A DNA stretch of 15,833 nt, taken from UHGV virus genome UHGV-0249966; one strand, given 5' to 3'. A program made the position numbers and the translations under genes. The stretch comes from a virus. Shown here piece by piece: positions 3,550 through 9,813 of the stretch. Each line of letters opens with the position of its first letter. Positions within the stretch are counted from its first letter, which is position 1. The notes under the pieces are model-generated. The model was given only the letters and a program-made list of their open reading frames with translations, had not been told where the DNA came from and made no database searches.

Positions 3550-4740
3550 TTAATTGCTGTTAACCGAAGTGACCAGATTTGCCAGGTATTTATCGGTAAT
3601 ACGCTGGCGCAGGGTCAGGTTTTCGAGAGGAGGCACCGGGGTATAGTCGTAGTCGATATACAGTTTTCCGGCCTTGAGGGTTTCCGCATCGTTGGATTCT
3701 TCGCTGAACCAGCAGGTCGCATCCACGATATAGCCGTTTGTTTTCAGCTCACGGAATTTGGCATTGATGCCGTCAACGATGTCGCGAATCAGCGTTGCGG
3801 TGATGGGCTTGTCCACCGCCCACATGTGCGCCTCAGCCATCGTGTCGGCCAGCACCTGCGCGGTGCGGGTGTAGTTTTCAAAGAGGAACAGCGGGTCATC
3901 AGAGCAGGTACGGTTACCCCAGAAGCGGAAACCGTCACGGCGAATCAGCGTTGTGACGCCTGACTCGTTAAGCAGGTCAGCATCGGTGCCGGACTCCTGC
4001 AAATCCCAGAATACAGAGGCGCTGATGCCGGTAACACCGTTCACCCCAACGTTGGACAGCGTTTTATGCCAGCCCTGCTCCTGGTCGATTTTAGCGCGCA
4101 GACCCAGCGCACGGGCGGTGGCATACGCGGTGGCGGTGGTACTGGTGACCGTATCCCATGCGAGGAAATCCGGCCAGATGACCATCAGCTCACGCTGGCT
4201 GAAATTCTGACGGTAGGCTTTCACCTCGGAAATGGTTTTACAGCCCCATGCGCTGATATACCCGAAAGCGCGCAGCTTCTGACAGACGGATGCCAGTGCA
4301 ACAGCCACCTCTTTGGTATCCAGTCCCGGCACACCGAGAATACGCGGTTTAACACCGGTTACCGACTCCGCCGCCAGCAGGGCTTTTAGTCCGGTGTACT
4401 GACCGTTTTCGTCGGTGGTGCCGATGATATTGGAAACGGTCTGCGCGAGTTTCGTTTCCTCGTCGTCGCCGGTGCCGTCTTCCACACGCACGACAACGGT
4501 GACCGGTTTTGACTGGTCAGCGATGGCCTGCAACGATGCCGCCAGCGTGCCTTTTTTACCGGCCTTTGCAATTGCGCTCTGCACATTGGTAATCAGCACC
4601 GGTTTATTGAGGGGGAAGGTTTCCGCATCCGCATCGCTGGCCGTGCAGACCATGCCGACAATGGCCGTGGATACGGTGGAAATGACACGGGTGCCGTCGT
4701 TAATCTCCAGCACCTGCACGCCGTGATGATAGTCTCTCAT
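3550..4740 (-). CDS. FI: Tail sheath protein gpFI
   Basis: 396-aa ORF (MRDYHHGVQVLEINDGTRVISTVSTAIVGMVCTASDADAETFPLNKPVLITNVQSAI...), same length as P2 gpFI and recognisably the contractile sheath N-terminus. Confidence 0.95.
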   Translation of the reverse strand: MRDYHHGVQVLEINDGTRVISTVSTAIVGMVCTASDADAETFPLNKPVLITNVQSAIAKAGKKGTLAASLQAIADQSKPVTVVVRVEDGTGDDEETKLAQTVSNIIGTTDENGQYTGLKALLAAESVTGVKPRILGVPGLDTKEVAVALASVCQKLRAFGYISAWGCKTISEVKAYRQNFSQRELMVIWPDFLAWDTVTSTTATAYATARALGLRAKIDQEQGWHKTLSNVGVNGVTGISASVFWDLQESGTDADLLNESGVTTLIRRDGFRFWGNRTCSDDPLFLFENYTRTAQVLADTMAEAHMWAVDKPITATLIRDIVDGINAKFRELKTNGYIVDATCWFSEESNDAETLKAGKLYIDYDYTPVPPLENLTLRQRITDKYLANLVTSVNSN

Positions 4741-4835
4741 CCGTTTAACTCCGTGGTTAATGGGTGCAACTATTTTCTGTTGTGCAGAGCATGAGACGCT
4801 ATTTGACCTGGCTGGTCAGGGGATGAAACAACAGA

Positions 4836-4859
4836 CAAAGAAAAGGCGGGTAATCCGCC
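4836..4859 (-). terminator. Candidate intrinsic terminator after the 278-aa accessory gene
   Basis: On the minus strand: GGCGG-ATTAC-CCGCC (5-bp all-GC stem, 4845-4859) followed immediately by TTTTCTTTG (4844-4836). It lies between the stop of ORF 4984-5820 and the FI start. Confidence 0.45.
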
Positions 4860-4983
4860 AGCCTGCCATGATTTGCACTCACTCATTTTCCAACTGACAA
4901 TTTACATAGCCCAAACGCTATCAAATCTGACAGTCTGCTTTGAGCGAAATGCGGACATGCGGGAGCATGGTTTATGTATGAAA

Positions 4984-5820
4984 CTAATGATGATAAATAC
5001 CATCGTCTAAAGGGGGACCTTCAGCCGTAACCCCCGTGATACTACTTGGCGGTTCAAAGATGGCCCGACCAAATATTGCATCAAACTCTGCTTTTGTGAC
5101 TGATAAGTATTGCAAGATGAGCTCTAGCAGCTCTCTGTACGTATCACAATGCCATTCAATGTGAGGACATATTCGGGAGAGAACTCTGTTCTTAAAATCA
5201 TCCAGATTATTTGGGACTTCCAGCAAGTTACCAGTGTTTAATGCTTTCGACATAAACTTGTAATTGAGCATAGAGAGAACCACTACTGATACACCTTTCT
5301 CTTGCCTTAACTGATCGAACTTCTCTTGTGCTTGAAGGCTTAGCTTGGCGTATTCGCGATCTCGTTTAGAGTTGATTGGTTCGACGTACTGAAGCGGTTC
5401 GTCTGCAGCATCACCGATACGTGGACAAAAGTATCTATTCCACCAAGCCTCAAAATACCTTTTTTGGAACTCAAGGTATGTCATCCCAATAATATTGGTG
5501 TTTTGAGTGTACTGTTTAGCACCCTGCTGAAGCCCGTGCTTTGAAATAATAAATCCAATATTAGCCCCGGTTTCATGCATTACCGTGGTGAACGAATGGA
5601 CCACCGTCTGTGGTATAGAACTACCCCAGTTTTTGCATTCCACAATGTATCTGATTTTGTCCACGCTCCTAACATCTGTAGCAAGAACATCCACATTCAC
5701 CGAGCCACGCGGGGTTTCTAAATCGACCTCGACTTCTGCAAACAAGCCAACATTACGGAATATACGTTGGACCCCTGTCTGGAGGTCTTGCCAGTTTTCT
5801 GGTAGTGGGTCATCGATCAC
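4984..5820 (-). CDS. Accessory protein with N-terminal PD-(D/E)xK (Mrr/restriction-endonuclease-like) nuclease core and an unassigned C-terminal region; candidate defence nuclease
   Basis: 278-aa ORF. Motif ...VNVDVLATDV...IRYIVECKNW... (D44, E61-x-K63) fits the D...(D/E)xK pattern of the restriction endonuclease fold. Start is GTG at 5820 (in-frame TAG at 5839-5841 prevents extension), with AGGA 9 nt upstream. GC looks intermediate, lower than the phage genes. Not part of the canonical P2 late operon. Confidence 0.6.
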   Translation of the reverse strand: MIDDPLPENWQDLQTGVQRIFRNVGLFAEVEVDLETPRGSVNVDVLATDVRSVDKIRYIVECKNWGSSIPQTVVHSFTTVMHETGANIGFIISKHGLQQGAKQYTQNTNIIGMTYLEFQKRYFEAWWNRYFCPRIGDAADEPLQYVEPINSKRDREYAKLSLQAQEKFDQLRQEKGVSVVVLSMLNYKFMSKALNTGNLLEVPNNLDDFKNRVLSRICPHIEWHCDTYRELLELILQYLSVTKAEFDAIFGRAIFEPPSSITGVTAEGPPLDDGIYHH

Positions 5821-5940
5821 TTCTGCTTTTCCTATGCACTATCCGCATGCTTTTAAGACTACTTGAAGACACAAACGTCGTCATCCACTAAAAGGTTCAA
5901 ATTTGAGATAAAAGTTCGTTTCTGGTACGAAGCGGATCGT

Positions 5941-6104
5941 TTGAAGAACCGTGTGATCTGCTAAGAGCGAGGAGTGGACGTTCTCAAGGGATTGCTTACA
6001 TCGAGGATGTATGAATCAACGGGGTGCAGGTCACAATATATGCTATCACTTGGTTGTTGAAACGAATGCCAAAGCCTGTGACGAGCGAGGAGTAGACTTT
6101 GGCA
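5941..6104. repeat. Two copies of a 15-nt motif GAGCGAGGAGT(G/A)GAC, each within an imperfect hairpin, in the inter-ORF spacer
   Basis: Copy 1 at 5965-5979 (gagcgaggagtggac) lies in the loop of hairpin 5941-5987 (5-bp stem, one bulge, 3 more bp). Copy 2 at 6083-6097 (gagcgaggagtagac) lies in hairpin 6067-6104 (perfect 8-bp stem tgccaaag/ctttggca, last motif base in the stem). Both are preceded by TGTGA; direct orientation, 118 bp apart. Confidence 0.6.
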
Positions 6105-6114
6105 CAAAAAAAAT

Positions 6115-7068
6115 TTAAGTGTCCGATGACTTTGTTTCAGCCGCTTTATCCTCAACCAATACCCAATCTCCGGAGCTAACCTTTGTCATAAGACAAAATG
6201 GAAAGTTGTTAAAAAAATGTTCAATATCACTTGAGGGTATTTTCTCAATTTTATTTAAACAACCATCAGCTATTTGTAGGGAAATCATTTCTCTTGTAAT
6301 TTTCATAAATTGATCAACATCAGATAACAACCATGTTTCATGATGAGCACCAAACAATTTGTGCGGTATATCATCAAGAATAAGATTGTCTAAATCATGT
6401 GATTTATCTTTGTTTAGCTCAAGAAGTACAAAATCAAAAAAATCAAAAAGATATGAATAGAGAAGATGAGTATAAAAGGTAAAATAGTAATCAGCAAAAT
6501 TAATATTGTTATTGAATCTATTTGAATACATCATATGAGGTTGAATCAGATCGTTTAGATCAGAGTCATATGCTTGGAAACAAATCTTTGTTTTAATATT
6601 ATCATCGTTGACATAATAAGGATTTACTGTTATCCCTCCATGAACTATCTTATTTCTTATTTTATTAAAGTCCTTATACCATTTTAAATTCAAATCTGGA
6701 AATTCCTGTGCATATTGCTGGAAATGATTTTCAAGGTAATCATATTTGTTGCCATTTTTTTTAGTTGGAAAAATTAATTTATCAGCTATCTGATATGCAA
6801 TATCCCATATCGTGCTGATTTTATAATAGCAATACTCAATAGCACTAATGCTGACAATTGATGTTGCATCATGTTTTCTGATGAACTCAGCATCTTTTTG
6901 AATTTTATTAATGTAAGTAATCATATAAAACAGTTTCTTGAAATGAGTTTTTAAATTTTTTAAAAGAAACTGAAGTTTTATGTCTTCCAGTGTATCTTCT
7001 TCATACTTATTTAAGTACATAATAATTTTATAAAGTGGACTGCCAACTCTTTTTGCATGTACATCCAT
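6115..7068 (-). CDS. AT-rich accessory protein with R-x4-H (HEPN-like) motif; candidate abortive-infection / RNase-type defence protein occupying the P2 Z/fun position
   Basis: 317-aa ORF with strongly AT-rich codon usage, unlike the flanking phage genes. ATG at 7068 preceded by GGAG (GGAGTAAATA-ATG). Motif KIRNKIVHGG = R138-N-K-I-V-H143, encoded at 6640-6657, matches the HEPN R-x4-6-H signature (R-N-x3-H as in many Abi-type HEPN proteins). Assignment rests on the motif alone. Confidence 0.55.
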   Translation of the reverse strand: MDVHAKRVGSPLYKIIMYLNKYEEDTLEDIKLQFLLKNLKTHFKKLFYMITYINKIQKDAEFIRKHDATSIVSISAIEYCYYKISTIWDIAYQIADKLIFPTKKNGNKYDYLENHFQQYAQEFPDLNLKWYKDFNKIRNKIVHGGITVNPYYVNDDNIKTKICFQAYDSDLNDLIQPHMMYSNRFNNNINFADYYFTFYTHLLYSYLFDFFDFVLLELNKDKSHDLDNLILDDIPHKLFGAHHETWLLSDVDQFMKITREMISLQIADGCLNKIEKIPSSDIEHFFNNFPFCLMTKVSSGDWVLVEDKAAETKSSDT

Positions 7069-7108
7069 TATTTACTCCAATAAATTAATGCGAACATTTT
7101 AATTGAAA

Positions 7109-7137
7109 ATTTAATGCCAAAAACTTTAGTTAGTCAA
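7109..7137 (-). promoter_or_regulatory. Candidate sigma70-type promoter for the accessory cassette
   Basis: Minus strand TTGACT (7137-7132), 17-nt spacer, TTAAAT (7114-7109), about 40 nt upstream of the ATG at 7068, in an AT-rich 168-bp intergenic region after G. Confidence 0.35.
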
Positions 7138-7236
7138 TAATTTATTCAAACGTCCGCTACTGGCACAGAACGGACTGTCAGATTAGGCTTTACTCTGTGC
7201 CATAGATATGTAAGCTCACACCAGAGCTCATACAAC

Positions 7237-7764
7237 TTATTGCGGCATTTCCGGCCATTCAGGATTTGCAGGATCCACACGACTGACCAGAACACTATAG
7301 CGTTCCCATGCCTCCAGTCGACTACGCTCCTCATCTGTTGCCATATTCAGCCTGACCGCGCGCTCCAGCGGCAAAATCACGGATTCAGCTTCGGAAAGCA
7401 AAGCTGCCTTATGTAATTCCGCCAGTTGCTGCTGTTCGTCTGCCGTATAAATCCGCTTAATCACGGCACCATCCTTAAACATCCATTTACCAGAGTCATC
7501 AGCACGCCGGTTGGCAGTAATATCAGGAACCTCAACGACGCTAAAACCTTCAGGATTAAGCGTTGAAGCATCTCTGGTGATGGCGACAATAATATTATTT
7601 TCATCGTAAACAATCTTTATTGTGTCTTCCTGAAAATTACTTACTTCTTCATACCAGTTTTTTCCGTCTTCGGACCATAACCAGATAACATCAAAATTCT
7701 TTGTTAGCTGATATTGCTCTTTTGTTTTTGGATTACCTGACTTAATGTTCTTTAAATGCTGCAT
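7237..7764 (-). CDS. G: Tail fiber assembly chaperone gpG
   Basis: 175-aa ORF directly after the tail fiber gene, same length and position as P2 gpG. Confidence 0.88.
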
Positions 7765-7767
7765 AAT

Positions 7768-9813
7768 TTACACCTGCGCAACGTTATACCATGTGCCATT
7801 GATGTATTTTTGTATTGGTCTGAATACTGCCGGATCATCACCATCGACTTCACCGACAATACCAAGCCCGGTAATTACGTGCCCTGCTTTCTCATACATC
7901 ACGCCTTTCTGCATGGTCTGCACAACACGTGTACCAAGTCTGATATCTCTCACATAGCGGGAATCAAAGTTACCGTAATCCGAGGGATTAACACGCCCCG
8001 TAATATTTATGGTCTTATTACTTTGAATGCTTCCGGAAACAAAGCGCATAACATGGACGTTATTAGCATAAACATCCAGATTACCATCGCCATTTTGTTT
8101 AAATCCGGTGTCGTTATCACCAAGAACAATAGAGTTCCCACCCAACGCGTTATTCGTGCCAAGTGCCAGCCCGCCATCAATCCTGGCACCATTACCAACA
8201 GACACAACTCCTGTTCTTAAGTTGATGCCGAATGGCCTTAATGGCCCAATATCTCCATTTTCACCCTCATTTTCTCGTGTAGGAATGATATACAGGTTTT
8301 CTTCAGAACGGCGAAAAATAGCCCCAAAAGATGAATTAAATATCCTCAGTGCATTGACTGTAGATATTTTTACTTCACTGCTGAAAAGGGCTTTAACAAG
8401 AACATACAGAGCATCCCATTTAAGATTCATCAGGTCTTTTGTTGTGGTGCTCTGGCGACTTCTCCATTTGAAATATTCATTGCCGTTGTCACCTGTTTCA
8501 AACCACATATATGAATCAGTATCGCTGTCGGCATCATTTTTAAATCCAATCTTTGCCCAGTCAGTATTTCGAATCCAGGCAAGGATTGAGTCGTTTTCAA
8601 AAGTAAGCCCACCGGACAAGGTATCGCCATTCTTTTGCACCGCGTTCCTGGCCCTGTTTACCGTTTCCTGCAAACCGAGGTATTCGATAACGGCAGTAAC
8701 GGTCGCTTTAGCCAGAATATCCCGTCCGACTTTTGTCAGGGTTGCCAGGCTGGCAACATCATTCCCCGTAAAATACGGAAACCTGTCTGCCGCAGTAGCA
8801 AGCCCCGCCAGCGCCGTCAAAGTGGCATCTTTCGGTTGCTTACCCGCAAGCGCATTAGTCATGGTGGTAGCAAAATTCGGGTCATTGCCCAGCGCCGCCG
8901 CCAGCTCGTTCAGCGTATTCAGTGCGTCAGGCGACGAGTCTACAAGGGCGGCAATCGCGGCCATAACGAAAGCCGTGTTTGCGATCTGAGTATTATTCGT
9001 TCCCTGTCGCGCAGTTGGCGTCGTTGGCGTTCCGGTCAGTGCAGGGCTGTTTAATGGCGCTTTCTTGTTCGTTTCATCCATTACCGTCTTAACGGCTTTT
9101 GGTGTTGCGGCGAGCGTCTCAGACATGCTGTTGGTCGCACTACTTAGCTGGACAAGACCTTTTCGCGCTGTGGTAGCGTCCTGTGCGGTATATTTCCCGT
9201 TAGCAAGGTCATATGCGGCCTTAACCGCTTTCGGCGTTGCGGCCAGTGTTTCAGACGTGCTGTTGGTCGCATTGCTTAACTGAGTAAAACCTTTTGCGGT
9301 CAGCGAGGCGTCCGGGTGACGTCGTGACTGTTCATGCTCTGCAATTTTGTCATCAACGTAATCCTGCGTCGCCATCACCGTTGTGGTGTCAATGGTCAGC
9401 TCCACTGAGGCCACACTGCTGACGATGATGACCATGCGGCAGGTCTGCGAACGCCCTGAGCCTTCGGCAAGGGTAGGTTTATAACTTTCGGCCATGTTCG
9501 CCACGGCAATTAACGTTCCCGCATCATCGTACAGGCCAAGCTCTCGCATCCAGAAACCGCCCACCTCCGGCGGAATAACCAGCTCTGCGATAATATAATT
9601 ACTGTTTCGTTTGTCCTGGCTGATTTTGTTCAGCGCATGTCGCCAGACTTCGTGGATAAGCCCGGTCTGTCCGGCATCCGGGACAGGCAATTTACCACCG
9701 CCATCCCCGACGGCCATCGTGGTAATGTTGACCTTCCGCCCTCCCGGCGCGGTTGCCGCTGCCAGCTTTGCTGCACCGGCAGTGGTGATAACGGTTTTGA
9801 ATTTTGTGCTCAT
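7768..9813 (-). CDS. H: Tail fiber protein gpH
   Basis: 681-aa ORF after baseplate gene I; conserved N-terminus MSTKFKTVITTAGAAKLAAAT...; internal duplicated motif ...SETLAATPKAVK... typical of phage tail fibers; Gly/Asn-rich C-terminal receptor-binding region. Slightly longer than the ~669 aa I recall for P2 gpH. Confidence 0.92.
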   Translation of the reverse strand: MSTKFKTVITTAGAAKLAAATAPGGRKVNITTMAVGDGGGKLPVPDAGQTGLIHEVWRHALNKISQDKRNSNYIIAELVIPPEVGGFWMRELGLYDDAGTLIAVANMAESYKPTLAEGSGRSQTCRMVIIVSSVASVELTIDTTTVMATQDYVDDKIAEHEQSRRHPDASLTAKGFTQLSNATNSTSETLAATPKAVKAAYDLANGKYTAQDATTARKGLVQLSSATNSMSETLAATPKAVKTVMDETNKKAPLNSPALTGTPTTPTARQGTNNTQIANTAFVMAAIAALVDSSPDALNTLNELAAALGNDPNFATTMTNALAGKQPKDATLTALAGLATAADRFPYFTGNDVASLATLTKVGRDILAKATVTAVIEYLGLQETVNRARNAVQKNGDTLSGGLTFENDSILAWIRNTDWAKIGFKNDADSDTDSYMWFETGDNGNEYFKWRSRQSTTTKDLMNLKWDALYVLVKALFSSEVKISTVNALRIFNSSFGAIFRRSEENLYIIPTRENEGENGDIGPLRPFGINLRTGVVSVGNGARIDGGLALGTNNALGGNSIVLGDNDTGFKQNGDGNLDVYANNVHVMRFVSGSIQSNKTINITGRVNPSDYGNFDSRYVRDIRLGTRVVQTMQKGVMYEKAGHVITGLGIVGEVDGDDPAVFRPIQKYINGTWYNVAQV
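9089..9317. repeat. Imperfect tandem direct repeat (period 132 bp, about 95 nt conserved per copy) inside H, encoding a duplicated 44-aa tail-fiber repeat
   Basis: Copy A from 9089 (cttaacggcttttggtgttgcggcgagcgtctcagacatgctgttggtcgc...) and copy B from 9221 (cttaaccgctttcggcgttgcggccagtgtttcagacgtgctgttggtcgc...). Protein level: QLSNATNSTSETLAATPKAVKAAYD / QLSSATNSMSETLAATPKAVKTVMD. Confidence 0.8.

Follow-up and report, generated by a model that had tools for sequence, protein, structure and literature searches.

The accessory locus between genes G and FI

The window, by which we mean the whole stretch of DNA analyzed here (UHGV-0249966, 15,833 nt), is a P2-like prophage, and the interval under study, at 7069–7236, lies within its known G/FI (Z/fun) accessory hotspot, which is named in PMC13586616 and in bioRxiv 10.1101/2024.10.15.618418. 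One border of the hotspot is gene G (7237–7764, minus strand), which encodes a tail fibre assembly protein of 175 aa (Pfam Caudo_TAP, E=3e-34), is the final gene of the P2-type V late operon and closes with a TAA stop codon at 7239–7237; the G region is 98% identical to P2-type phages at the nucleotide level. The second border is gene FI (3550–4740, minus strand), a tail sheath gene (Pfam Phage_sheath_1, Phage_sheath_1C and Gp18_domIII_N) that opens the next late operon according to the P2 annotation of the F operon. Between these genes lies a cassette co-oriented with G, whose cargo has a GC content of 0.36 (0.29 in the first gene) compared with 0.57 for FI. The preliminary description had treated this cassette as a moron-like insert, and in outline we agree, the cassette being a low-GC insertion at this hotspot.

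The first cargo gene (6115–7068, minus strand) encodes a protein of 317 aa that belongs to no assigned family and whose 70 homologue clusters occur solo in island-like contexts. Its residues R138-N139-x3-H143 are invariant in 24 homologues and fit the HEPN-like Rx4H (Rx4-6H) motif, and HEPN_Apea matches were obtained for 4 of the 24, all below threshold (best E=0.004). The AF2 model (pLDDT 87) is largely helical around the R138–H143 motif; compared with the PDB by Foldseek, it matched no structure at E<=0.001, and its best local matches were the HEPN toxins 8yuf and 8xdj (TM 0.5 on target). PADLOC gave no match for this protein, and a sequence search of the PDB with the family profile returned nothing meaningful. 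The second cargo gene (4984–5820, minus strand) encodes a restriction-endonuclease-like protein of 278 aa (Pfam Mrr_cat, E=4e-11). Together with its own upstream region (to ~6033), it is a separate module, and the segment at 4933–6033 is found by itself in a lambdoid prophage (H39/L004) at 96% identity.

On the coding strand, no terminator-like site was found within the cargo, and the first one reached is the intrinsic terminator of the phage backbone (4859–4835, minus strand; GGCGGATTACCCGCC then TTTTCTTTGT), which a terminator scan places just upstream of the FI late-promoter region and downstream of the entire cassette. This terminator likely stops the transcripts of both the V operon and the cassette. 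In relatives with an empty hotspot, a homologous terminator follows immediately 3' of the G stop codon, giving the order G stop codon, terminator and FI (loci L042, L045, L049 and L050).

The 168-nt interval between G and the first cargo gene is the junction of two unrelated pieces, an element end and a cargo leader. It had been described as AT-rich throughout, which is true of the 83 nt at 7069–7151 (GC 0.205) and not of the 85 nt at 7152–7236 (GC 0.48). Each sequence that the preliminary description had singled out is present, and its interpretation is only half right.

Cargo leader and candidate promoter

The cargo-specific 5' leader occupies 7069–7151 on the minus strand, and it is here that a sigma-70-like promoter, able to express the cassette from a repressed prophage, had been proposed. 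The minus-strand TTGACT (7137–7132) and TTAAAT (7114–7109) are in place with their 17-nt spacer, as is a Shine-Dalgarno GGAG at 7078–7075, 6 nt ahead of the ATG at 7068–7066. TTAAAT has T at position 2 (-11) of the -10 hexamer, where A is nearly invariant, and a shift by one base does better, giving a hexamer with A at -11 and T at -7: in our weight matrix, TTGACT followed after 18 nt by TAAATT (7113–7108) scores 12.6, compared with 10.1 for the 17-nt register. In the shifted register, the candidate promoter is the top-scoring site on both strands of the whole 15.8-kb window, a score that 2.5–3.6% of segment shuffles reach. It sits 39 nt upstream of the ATG, at a suitable spacing from both the Shine-Dalgarno sequence and the start codon, with transcription expected to start near 7104–7100. 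Judged from sequence, the leader probably carries the sigma-70 promoter of the first cargo gene, starting near 7102.

An alternative is that the cargo has no promoter here. Transcripts of the cassette would then come only from the V operon, extended at its 3' side, or start at some other promoter, and TTGACT and TAAATT would be chance occurrences in DNA of 20% GC. The cassette is co-oriented with G and nothing terminator-like separates them, so read-through from the V operon during lytic growth probably crosses the cassette. Promoter-like sites also occur at chance density in the region, as a plain consensus scan of 4500–8000 found 13 compared with 10.4 +/- 3.9 in shuffled sequence, and among co-oriented cargo leaders in the hotspot, 12 of 13 had no site above shuffles, with no general enrichment.

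In another genome, the 317-aa gene and its leader follow a related end and lie downstream of terD. At the non-P2 site L087, the leader has moved with the gene at 83% identity, which is less than at synonymous codon positions (90%). In this closest homologous leader the hexamers are not conserved: the -35 reads TTAACT, the -10 reads GAAATT and the spacer is one base longer. The best promoter-like site of the L087 leader instead lies 15 nt upstream, an alternative good site that suggests promoter turnover rather than absence.

Against a cargo without a promoter stand this alternative site, the rank of the candidate in the window, its correct distance to the Shine-Dalgarno sequence and ATG, and the orientation of cargos in the hotspot. 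Across P2-like loci, about half of the cargos point against G and the late operon; these, and likewise fun(Z) of P2 itself, cannot use late read-through, so that cargos as a class must carry their own promoters. In the P2 record, fun(Z), old and tin are marked as lysogenic-conversion genes, and transcript starts of old-tin have been mapped; PMC7067206 describes high expression in lysogens as common for accessory loci of prophages. A cargo-borne promoter is plausible and would be ordinary: an accessory gene in a prophage hotspot can be expected to arrive with a promoter of its own. We retain the candidate promoter, good in rank and geometry and altered in the closest homologue, and regard a cassette with no promoter of its own as the less likely case, although one deserving of serious weight.

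Terminal inverted repeats and their family

The remainder of the interval, at 7152–7234 on the minus strand, is an 83-nt left ('class 1') terminal inverted repeat that matches model positions 1–83 of our end profile (nhmmer, E=1e-10). It comprises a terminus (TGTATGAGCTC, 7234–7224), a core (ATCTGACAGTC, 7183–7173) and a hairpin (GTCCGT-TCTGTGCCAGTA-GCGGAC, 7175–7152). The right ('class 2') terminal inverted repeat reads inward on the plus strand at 4889–4956, matches model positions 16–83 (E=2e-11) and has the form ...AACTGACAAT...ATCTGACAGTCTGC-TTTGAGCGAAAT-GCGGAC, with its outermost ~15 nt degenerate. A 33-nt inverted repeat joins the right end and 7152–7184 at 76% complementarity, and the arms align with a score of 38, above all 500 shuffles (20.5 +/- 3.8). 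The profile was built from 17 ends, all from non-P2 loci, and was seeded with a pattern from the core motif of the window, so that matches at model positions ~52–83 arise partly by construction; model positions 1–51 and the target duplications described below are independent of that seed.

These ends coincide with the borders of the hotspot. Among 84 P2-like loci, the left end directly follows G in 73, both ends are present in 58 and the site is empty in 4; P2-like phages thus show presence/absence polymorphism, with both occupied and empty G/FI junctions. The left end is common to P2-like phages that bear more than 20 different cargos, and the cargos begin exactly at its inner edge: homology to differently loaded phages extends ~85–88 nt from the G stop, breaks right after GCGGAC(R)TT and restarts at the right end with (AT)GTCCGC on the FI side. 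Matches to the interval occur in 1038 of 5426 E. coli genomes, 8 of which hold the whole cassette; among the matches listed, the remaining genomes align only at the two ends of the cassette. E. coli LD93-1 (NZ_CP047662) carries the cassette at 99.9% identity. P2 itself carries the end only at the G/FI hotspot and not at tin-old.

Beyond P2, convergent pairs of such ends enclose elements of 0.7–7.5 kb on plasmids, in genomic islands and in other prophages. Perfect 7-bp direct target duplications flank 33 of 49 end pairs; by source, these are 20 of the 33 pairs from genomes, metagenomes or plasmids and 13 of the 16 from viral contigs. The duplicated sequences are AT-rich and vary, with at least 15 distinct ones. 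Each end spans 83 nt, opens with TGT and contains two direct CTGACAGT repeats and an inner hairpin, the loop of which differs systematically between the two end classes. Their cargo is diverse and includes type II CBASS, an OLD-like ATPase, a reverse transcriptase, SIR2 and metabolic genes; a single target site, GATAAAG beside a P4-like integrase, holds cargos of 1.4, 3.4 and 6.7 kb. Copies are found almost exclusively on mobile elements, typically a few bases past a stop codon, and at one to four per E. coli genome. The 11-mer GAGCTTACATA, which we take to be part of the ERIC primers, had raised the idea of an ERIC/IRU repeat, which we dropped because of this low copy number. The end is absent from canonical P4 (NC_001609).

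A Pfam scan of cargo ORFs at 13 loci, among them the longest elements and two one-ended loci, found no transposase. Separately, an IS30-type gene in L103 looks like an independent insertion. With no transposase found in any copy, only the target duplications and the empty sites point to mobility. No target duplication was found at the copy in the window, and this, together with the degenerate right terminus, makes that copy look immobilized.

Both inverted repeats of the preliminary description are real, slightly longer than had been claimed, and fall inside the left end. TGGCACAGA (7202–7194) pairs with TCTGTGCCA (7169–7161) at 9 of 9 positions around a 24-nt loop, and GTCCG(T) (7175–7170) pairs with (G)CGGAC (7157–7152). 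What we do not uphold is the role proposed for them, namely that the stems could form in late transcripts and dampen read-through out of the V operon, which would leave the cassette insulated and driven by its own promoter only. They do resemble rho-independent terminators or attenuators in being GC-containing stem-loops directly past the last late gene, the position expected of a terminator, and minimum-energy folds of the G 3' region include both. They differ in having no U-tract (the stems are followed by GTAGCGG and GTTTGAAT), in their loops of 12 and 24 nt and in the conservation of the DNA in both orientations. A terminator scan called nothing in 7069–7236, and an Rfam scan of 4700–7400 with permissive filters matched no family.

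Local folding z-scores of the hairpins are modest (-2.1 and -1.6). Little varies in the six stem pairs across 152 distinct ends, and the sole variable one, pair 4, is equivocal (C-G 47, T-G 46, T-A 15 and C-A 15), with little clean covariation; given the weak z-scores and mostly invariant pairs, we do not claim a structured RNA. The same sequence recurs at both element ends, in both orientations and in places with no late operon upstream, the GGCACAG/CTGTGCC pairing is not preserved in other family members, and a canonical terminator already lies downstream of the cassette, or directly after G where the hotspot is empty. Attenuation is thus very improbable, and the likely role of the inverted repeats is recognition by a transposase rather than RNA attenuation. 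The GTCCGY-N12-GCGGAC hairpin lies at the inner edge of the end, and the other repeat is a subfamily-specific pairing with the hairpin loop.

The arms could instead be sites for a site-specific recombinase, as in integron-, Xer- or dif-module-like cassettes. The cargo does have a short unit with a palindrome at either side, in inverted orientation, one island (L094) has a right-type and a left-type unit back to back between its cargo genes, and several copies adjoin tyrosine or serine recombinase genes. Those genes, however, lie outside the elements, which are located immediately after their stop codons. When neighbouring ORFs were clustered all against all, the only genes recovered were outside the elements, namely P4-like integrases, serine recombinases and gpD. 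The length of the ends, their TGT start and their direct repeats also speak against recombinase sites. What decides the question is that the flanking 7-bp repeats vary from insertion to insertion, which indicates staggered cuts by a transposase rather than a fixed crossover core; on this basis the integron attC and Xer/dif-module idea was ruled out, and we hold recombinase sites of any such kind to be highly improbable.

That the arms are simply untranslated flanks of the P2 backbone that serve as homology anchors, their resemblance incidental and not of transposon origin, is hardly credible: although they are about as conserved as G among close relatives and lack a target duplication in the window, both are missing from P2-like phages with an empty site, both are detected by a profile built outside P2, homologous ends delimit elements flanked by target duplications on plasmids and in islands, as well as in lambdoid prophages and other myovirus prophages, and in some P2-like phages (L073 type) the canonical family terminus is nested within the hotspot. 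The non-P2 matches are not fragments of P2, as they adjoin integrases, resolvases, terD and lysis genes, and 38 nt of the left end recur, 97% identical, at cargo boundaries in non-P2 islands.

Origin of the hotspot frame and comparison with known systems

Taken together, we read the interval as an element end joined to a cargo leader with a probable promoter, and we give this full composite explanation a probability of about 0.8. An ancestor of these P2-like phages would have acquired a cargo-carrying member of a non-autonomous DNA transposon family in the gap that separates the G stop codon from the late-operon terminator; 7234–7152 would be one of its 83-nt ends and 4889–4956 the partner, both persisting as the fixed frame of the hotspot. 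Cargo would since have been exchanged within it, and the most likely route is that conserved ends of different family members recombined. The first cargo gene would be transcribed from its own sigma-70 promoter and translated from the GGAG ribosome-binding site, and so could be made in the lysogen, with transcripts running through or past the second module to the terminator at 4859–4835. Direct observation covers the anatomy of the locus, the family of related ends with its target duplications, the existence of empty sites and the sharpness of the cargo boundaries.

Published work on the hotspot has approached it from another side. The hotspot papers define it by its flanking genes, and the surveys of P2/P4 hotspots describe very fast swapping of defence genes, with the mechanism left open, and transposable elements as almost absent (PMC13586616). 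Inverted repeats are not mentioned in the text of PMC13586616, PMC9122126 or bioRxiv 10.1101/2024.10.15.618418. Searches of full texts for the motif strings returned nothing relevant, and a keyword search of the literature on cargo-bearing non-autonomous transposons returned no description of the 83-nt-end family; the transposon-like frame of the G/FI hotspot appears to be undescribed.

More broadly, it is possible, at somewhat short of even odds in our view, that an undescribed transposon family with 83-bp ends, 7-bp duplications and no transposase of its own, which inserts past stop codons and leaves its ends in place as cargo is swapped, builds the G/FI hotspot and a share of the accessory sites in other Enterobacterales prophages, plasmids and integrase-borne islands. 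If so, it would provide a concrete mechanism for the arrival and replacement of morons at exact positions in compact phage genomes. The borders of this textbook hotspot are sharp to the nucleotide and fall on the inner edges of transposon ends, and on plasmids, in islands and in unrelated prophages these ends likewise enclose defence systems and other cargo. Having such a pair of 83-nt ends in common would offer both an entry route, by transposition to sites just after stop codons, and portable homology for later exchange of cargo. If confirmed, the end profile could become a cheap delimiter of cargo in Enterobacterales mobile elements and a finder of candidate defence genes.

The closest biological parallel is the Z/fun morons of P2, in the sense of the moron concept of Juhala and Hendrix. 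There, too, low-GC genes separate two late genes that are direct neighbours in relatives, and the cargo is likely expressed from the prophage; the position of fun(Z) is the same, and cargo varies between near-identical phages. A classical moron carries its own terminator, whereas the cassette described here appears to rely on that of the backbone. In architecture, the family resembles MICs and other cargo-bearing MITE-like transposons, which share terminal inverted repeats, target-site duplications, passenger genes without a transposase, a size of a few hundred bases to several kb and presumed mobilization in trans. It differs from them in its long, composite ends (83 nt, with the TGT terminus, the two direct repeats and the inner hairpin), its 7-bp duplication, its asymmetric hairpin loops and its low copy number.

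We know of no parent insertion sequence for the 83-nt-end family, and none of TnsB, TniA, MuA or IstA was found with these ends among the loci analyzed. Tn552, Tn5053/Tn402, Tn7, Mu and IS21-type elements combine a DDE transposase with an ATPase, and their ends carry terminal TG...CA, are asymmetric between left and right, and are long, with several subterminal direct repeats that bind the transposase. Target duplications are 6–7 bp for Tn552 and 5 bp for Tn7, Mu and Tn5053. To our knowledge, there is no recognized sequence similarity between the 83-nt ends and those of these elements. The likeness is instead one of layout, in the terminal TG...CA, the direct repeats and the asymmetry, and the family departs from the Tn7/Mu/Tn5053 type in making duplications of 7 bp rather than 5 bp.

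The frame around the hotspot

The stretch corresponds to the late region of a Peduovirus (P2-like) prophage; on the minus strand, H (7768–9813) lies upstream of G (7237–7764), the last late gene before a low-GC insert, and FI (3550–4740) lies beyond it. The insert holds two minus-strand genes, the first for a 317-aa protein of unknown family (6115–7068) and the second for a 278-aa Mrr_cat endonuclease-like protein (4984–5820). P2-type phages from Escherichia and Yersinia share 93–98% identity with G and its surroundings; in P2 itself the G–FI interval carries the non-essential fun(Z), labelled a lysogenic-conversion gene in the GenBank record, and recent surveys treat the interval as an accessory and defence hotspot (PMC13586616; bioRxiv 10.1101/2024.10.15.618418). 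Among 5,426 complete E. coli genomes the interval was matched in 1,038 and the full cassette in 8, and the other listed genomes match at both interval ends only, with Shedu, SIR2, HNH or other genes between.

We gathered 80 related loci via the G protein and lined up the sequence downstream of the G stop. Loci with differing cargo are alike for ~85–88 nt, and their similarity breaks off sharply just behind GCGGAC(R)TT (window ~7149–7152); on the FI side, similarity restarts at (AT)GTCCGC, near 4956. Because divergence begins at ~7149–7152, the two inverted repeats listed in the preliminary description fall within a segment common to all cargo types, and its promoter-like site falls within the cargo-specific part. 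Four relatives with an empty G/FI interval run from the G stop directly into GGCGGGCGGATTGCCCGCC-TTTTCTTT and then the FI promoter region; the homologue of this empty-site terminator lies downstream of the cassette (4859–4835), and the coding strand has no other terminator-like site from G to FI. A terminator-like hairpin on the opposite strand (4956–4969, +), CATGCGGGAGCATG then GTTTATGTAT, sits exactly where the cargo meets the right end, and its motif is kept in a lambdoid copy of the endonuclease module.

The two borders belong to one repeated unit. Positions 7152–7184 and 4924–4956 form a 33-nt inverted repeat (76% complementary), and local alignment of arm against arm scores 38, compared with 20.5 ± 3.8 (maximum 34) in 500 shuffles. 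The cargo-side edge of each arm reads ATCTGACA, then GTCYGY-N12-GCGGAC. When one genome per species was scanned for the pattern, this core turned up in Enterobacter, Morganella, Pantoea, Klebsiella plasmids, Rouxiella, Buttiauxella, Yersinia and Xenorhabdus, mostly as part of a longer conserved unit starting TGTATTAGCTCAGA. In E. coli genomic islands a 38-nt core, 92–97% identical, adjoins a YeeP-like GTPase gene and likewise borders variable AT-rich genes, and in one island (L094) the first cargo gene is followed by a right-type and a left-type copy placed back to back. These YeeP-side islands carry the 33–38-nt inner unit alone, beside variable genes (DUF2971, ETEC_3214 family), at 4003–4035, 5038–5070 and 5071–5103 in L094 and at 4003–4035 in a second island, L093; the TGT terminus in L094 is a degenerate trace at most, and its back-to-back units between cargo genes resemble a cassette array.

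Scanning was extended to metagenomes and viral contigs, which yielded 49 and 40 loci. A profile of 17 ends, none from P2-like phages, has the 83-nt consensus TGTATTAGCTCAGACTTGATCTGACAGTTTTCACTGGCAGCACACAATCAAATCTGACAGTCTGC-TTTGAGCGAAAA-GCGGAC and matches the left arm of the window (7234–7152) at full length (E=1e-10), the right arm (4889–4956) from position 16 (E=2e-11) and P2 on both sides of fun(Z). Facing end pairs, enclosing 0.7–7.5 kb, occur at 49 loci, and 33 of these pairs have identical 7-base direct repeats just outside the termini. The repeats differ in sequence and are rich in AT (for example, CTTAATA, AATGATA, GATTAAG, TATTAGC and CATCACC), which is the mark of a staggered transposase cut rather than of a constant recombination core. 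In four elements compared (the window, P2 and two others, L096 and L100), one end has a TCYGTGCCAG-type loop and the other a TTTGAGCGA-type loop; the two ends are therefore unlike, as in many transposons.

Cargos include type II CBASS with an Mrr-like gene, an OLD-like ATPase, a reverse transcriptase, SIR2 with adenosine deaminase, a TIR-like protein and plain metabolic genes; no transposase was found among the scanned cargo ORFs. Mobile elements are where the copies lie, mostly within a few bases of the end of a gene; examples are genes for P4-like integrases, serine recombinases and gpD, a tail-fibre-associated gene of another myovirus prophage, and the lysis region of a lambdoid prophage. 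Just past the stop of a P4-like integrase gene, the target GATAAAG is occupied in three samples by cargos of 1.4 kb (L122, 867–2266), 3.4 kb (L118, 250–3638) and 6.7 kb (L121, 4447–11154, type II CBASS), so the cargo changes and the ends and duplication stay. Copy number in E. coli is low, at 1–4 places per genome, and the family also occurs on 163 plasmids, mostly conjugative. Two complete small elements occupy classical 'moron' positions: one directly after the last tail gene, for a DUF4376-domain protein, of another myovirus-type prophage (L159, 8001–8862), and one in a lambdoid prophage, flanked by the holin gene essD and a TolA-C-like gene (L160, 6001–6609).

On this sequence comparison, we assign 7234–7152 to the left end of such an element, which entered after the G stop and ahead of the late terminator. 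The window copy looks fossilised; it is without target duplication, its right terminus is degenerate and its left terminus reads TGTATGAGCTCTGG rather than TGTATTAGCTCAGA. Some P2-like phages have a second canonical terminus nested within the hotspot, which indicates that family members entered it more than once. In L073, one such phage locus (172–242; also L063, L071 and similar loci), this second end has an intact terminus, TCTGAGCTAATACA, 86 nt inside the left end of the hotspot.

The cargo leader and its genes

The preliminary description called the 168 bp between G and the cassette (7069–7236) an AT-rich leader with a sigma70-like promoter, and every promoter hexamer, GGAG and inverted repeat it listed is present where it was placed. 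Low GC holds for the 83 nt beside the cargo gene (0.205) but not for the 85 nt beside G (0.48). The proposed −10, TTAAAT after a 17-nt spacer, lacks the near-invariant A at position 2; one base on, TAAATT with an 18-nt spacer is better. TTGACT-18-TAAATT (7137–7108) outscores every other site on either strand of the window, with 12.6 in a position-weight scan using approximate published base frequencies, a value reached by 2.5–3.6% of segment shuffles. The ATG lies 39 nt beyond the end of the −10 and 6 nt beyond GGAG, and an A/T-rich stretch lies upstream of the −35. A limiting result is that, among 13 co-oriented cargo leaders, only that of the window beats its own shuffles.

The leader also travels with its gene. 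Outside P2, the 317-aa gene has its closest homologue (88% amino-acid identity) behind terD; there, a related arm begins directly at the terD stop and is followed by the 83-nt leader and then the gene. This locus also limits the promoter reading: identity to the window is only 83% in the leader, compared with 93% in the coding sequence and 90% at third codon positions. The terD copy has altered hexamers (TTAACT and GAAATT) and one extra spacer base, and its best promoter-like site is elsewhere, 15 nt upstream. In favor of a promoter, 8 of 21 real cargo types are oriented with G, 7 against and the rest mixed, and thus hotspot cargos as a class cannot rely on late-operon transcription. Weighing these, we consider a leader promoter a reasonable prediction rather than an established feature, with odds slightly in its favor, and the promoter reading as a whole plausible and ordinary. 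With no terminator between G and the cassette, read-through from the late genes probably contributes to cassette expression in lytic growth.

The 317-aa family is small (70 clusters among 5.8 billion proteins), and each member stands alone in an island-like setting, in Aeromonas, Vibrio, Klebsiella, Pantoea, Dickeya and others. R138-N139-x3-H143 is invariant, HEPN_Apea matches below threshold in 4 of 24 homologues, and the AlphaFold model is confident (pLDDT 87), with HEPN toxins as its best compact local matches and no significant PDB neighbour; a HEPN-type nuclease is at most a fair guess. RefSeq splits the gene into two ORFs in five of the eight cassette-bearing E. coli genomes (L003, 2891–3843, NZ_CP099752, and four others, H35–H38), where the cassettes are 14–15 nt longer (2,510–2,511 nt); in another, H33, the cassette is equally long but the gene is one ORF. 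Most carriers may thus have an inactivated first cargo gene.

The Mrr_cat gene and ~210 nt upstream form a self-contained 1.1-kb module (4933–6033), found alone at 96% identity right after replication gene P of a lambdoid prophage (L004, 3001–4102), where it adjoins a degenerate end-hairpin copy (GGTCAGCTATGAGCAAAGTGCGGCC). Since the module occurs separately, the window cargo is a composite of two modules. The terD locus (L087, 3845–3916 and 5832–8481), from another enterobacterial genome, lies downstream of a ter (tellurite-resistance) operon and carries the 317-aa homologue, then genes for a PRTase-CE/OLD-like TOPRIM protein and a DUF3800 protein. The neighbourhood is defence-island-like and is reached through the same kind of end.

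Inverted repeats of the left end

The overlapping repeats beside G had been proposed to attenuate read-through from the late operon. In the GTCCG/CGGAC repeat, 7175–7170 pairs with 7157–7152 (6 bp including one G-T, 12-nt loop), forming the hairpin on the end's inner margin; in the GGCACAG/CTGTGCC repeat, an upstream stretch pairs with the loop of that hairpin (7202–7194 with 7169–7161, 9/9, 24-nt loop). The latter pairing is kept in a Yersinia copy with one G-T pair and lost in Enterobacter, Buttiauxella and island copies. Across 152 distinct ends the hairpin stem is conserved mainly as sequence, with no clean compensatory signal at its one variable pair. Attenuation is not supported: the repeats have no U-tract, terminator-scan call or Rfam match and lie within a recurrent transposon end, so with the stem kept as sequence they are better described as DNA features of that end, where they probably bind protein. 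A third small hairpin, which had not been listed (7224–7233 and 7213–7221; minus-strand stem UGAGCUC/GAGCUUA at 7230–7207), follows the G stop directly, within the terminal part of the end, and some P2-like phages have a 12-nt deletion there.

Comparison with known systems

We interpret the G-proximal half of the region as one terminus of the transposon-like frame by which the hotspot is defined, and this frame, just outside the earlier interpretation, is more interesting than the promoter. One recent survey reports transposable elements to be almost absent from these hotspots (PMC13586616), and we found no description of the ends in the accessible part of the literature or by motif-string text search. 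The 7-bp duplication excludes the 5-bp families, and the scanned ORFs held no cognate transposase. Leader and promoter agree with the classical moron picture and with what is known of the Z/fun hotspot. The frame matches TIR transposons of the non-autonomous kind that carry passenger genes (MICs and MITE-like elements), and the layout of its ends, with a TG terminus, subterminal repeats and asymmetry, recalls those of Tn552, Tn5053, Tn7, Mu and IS21-type elements.
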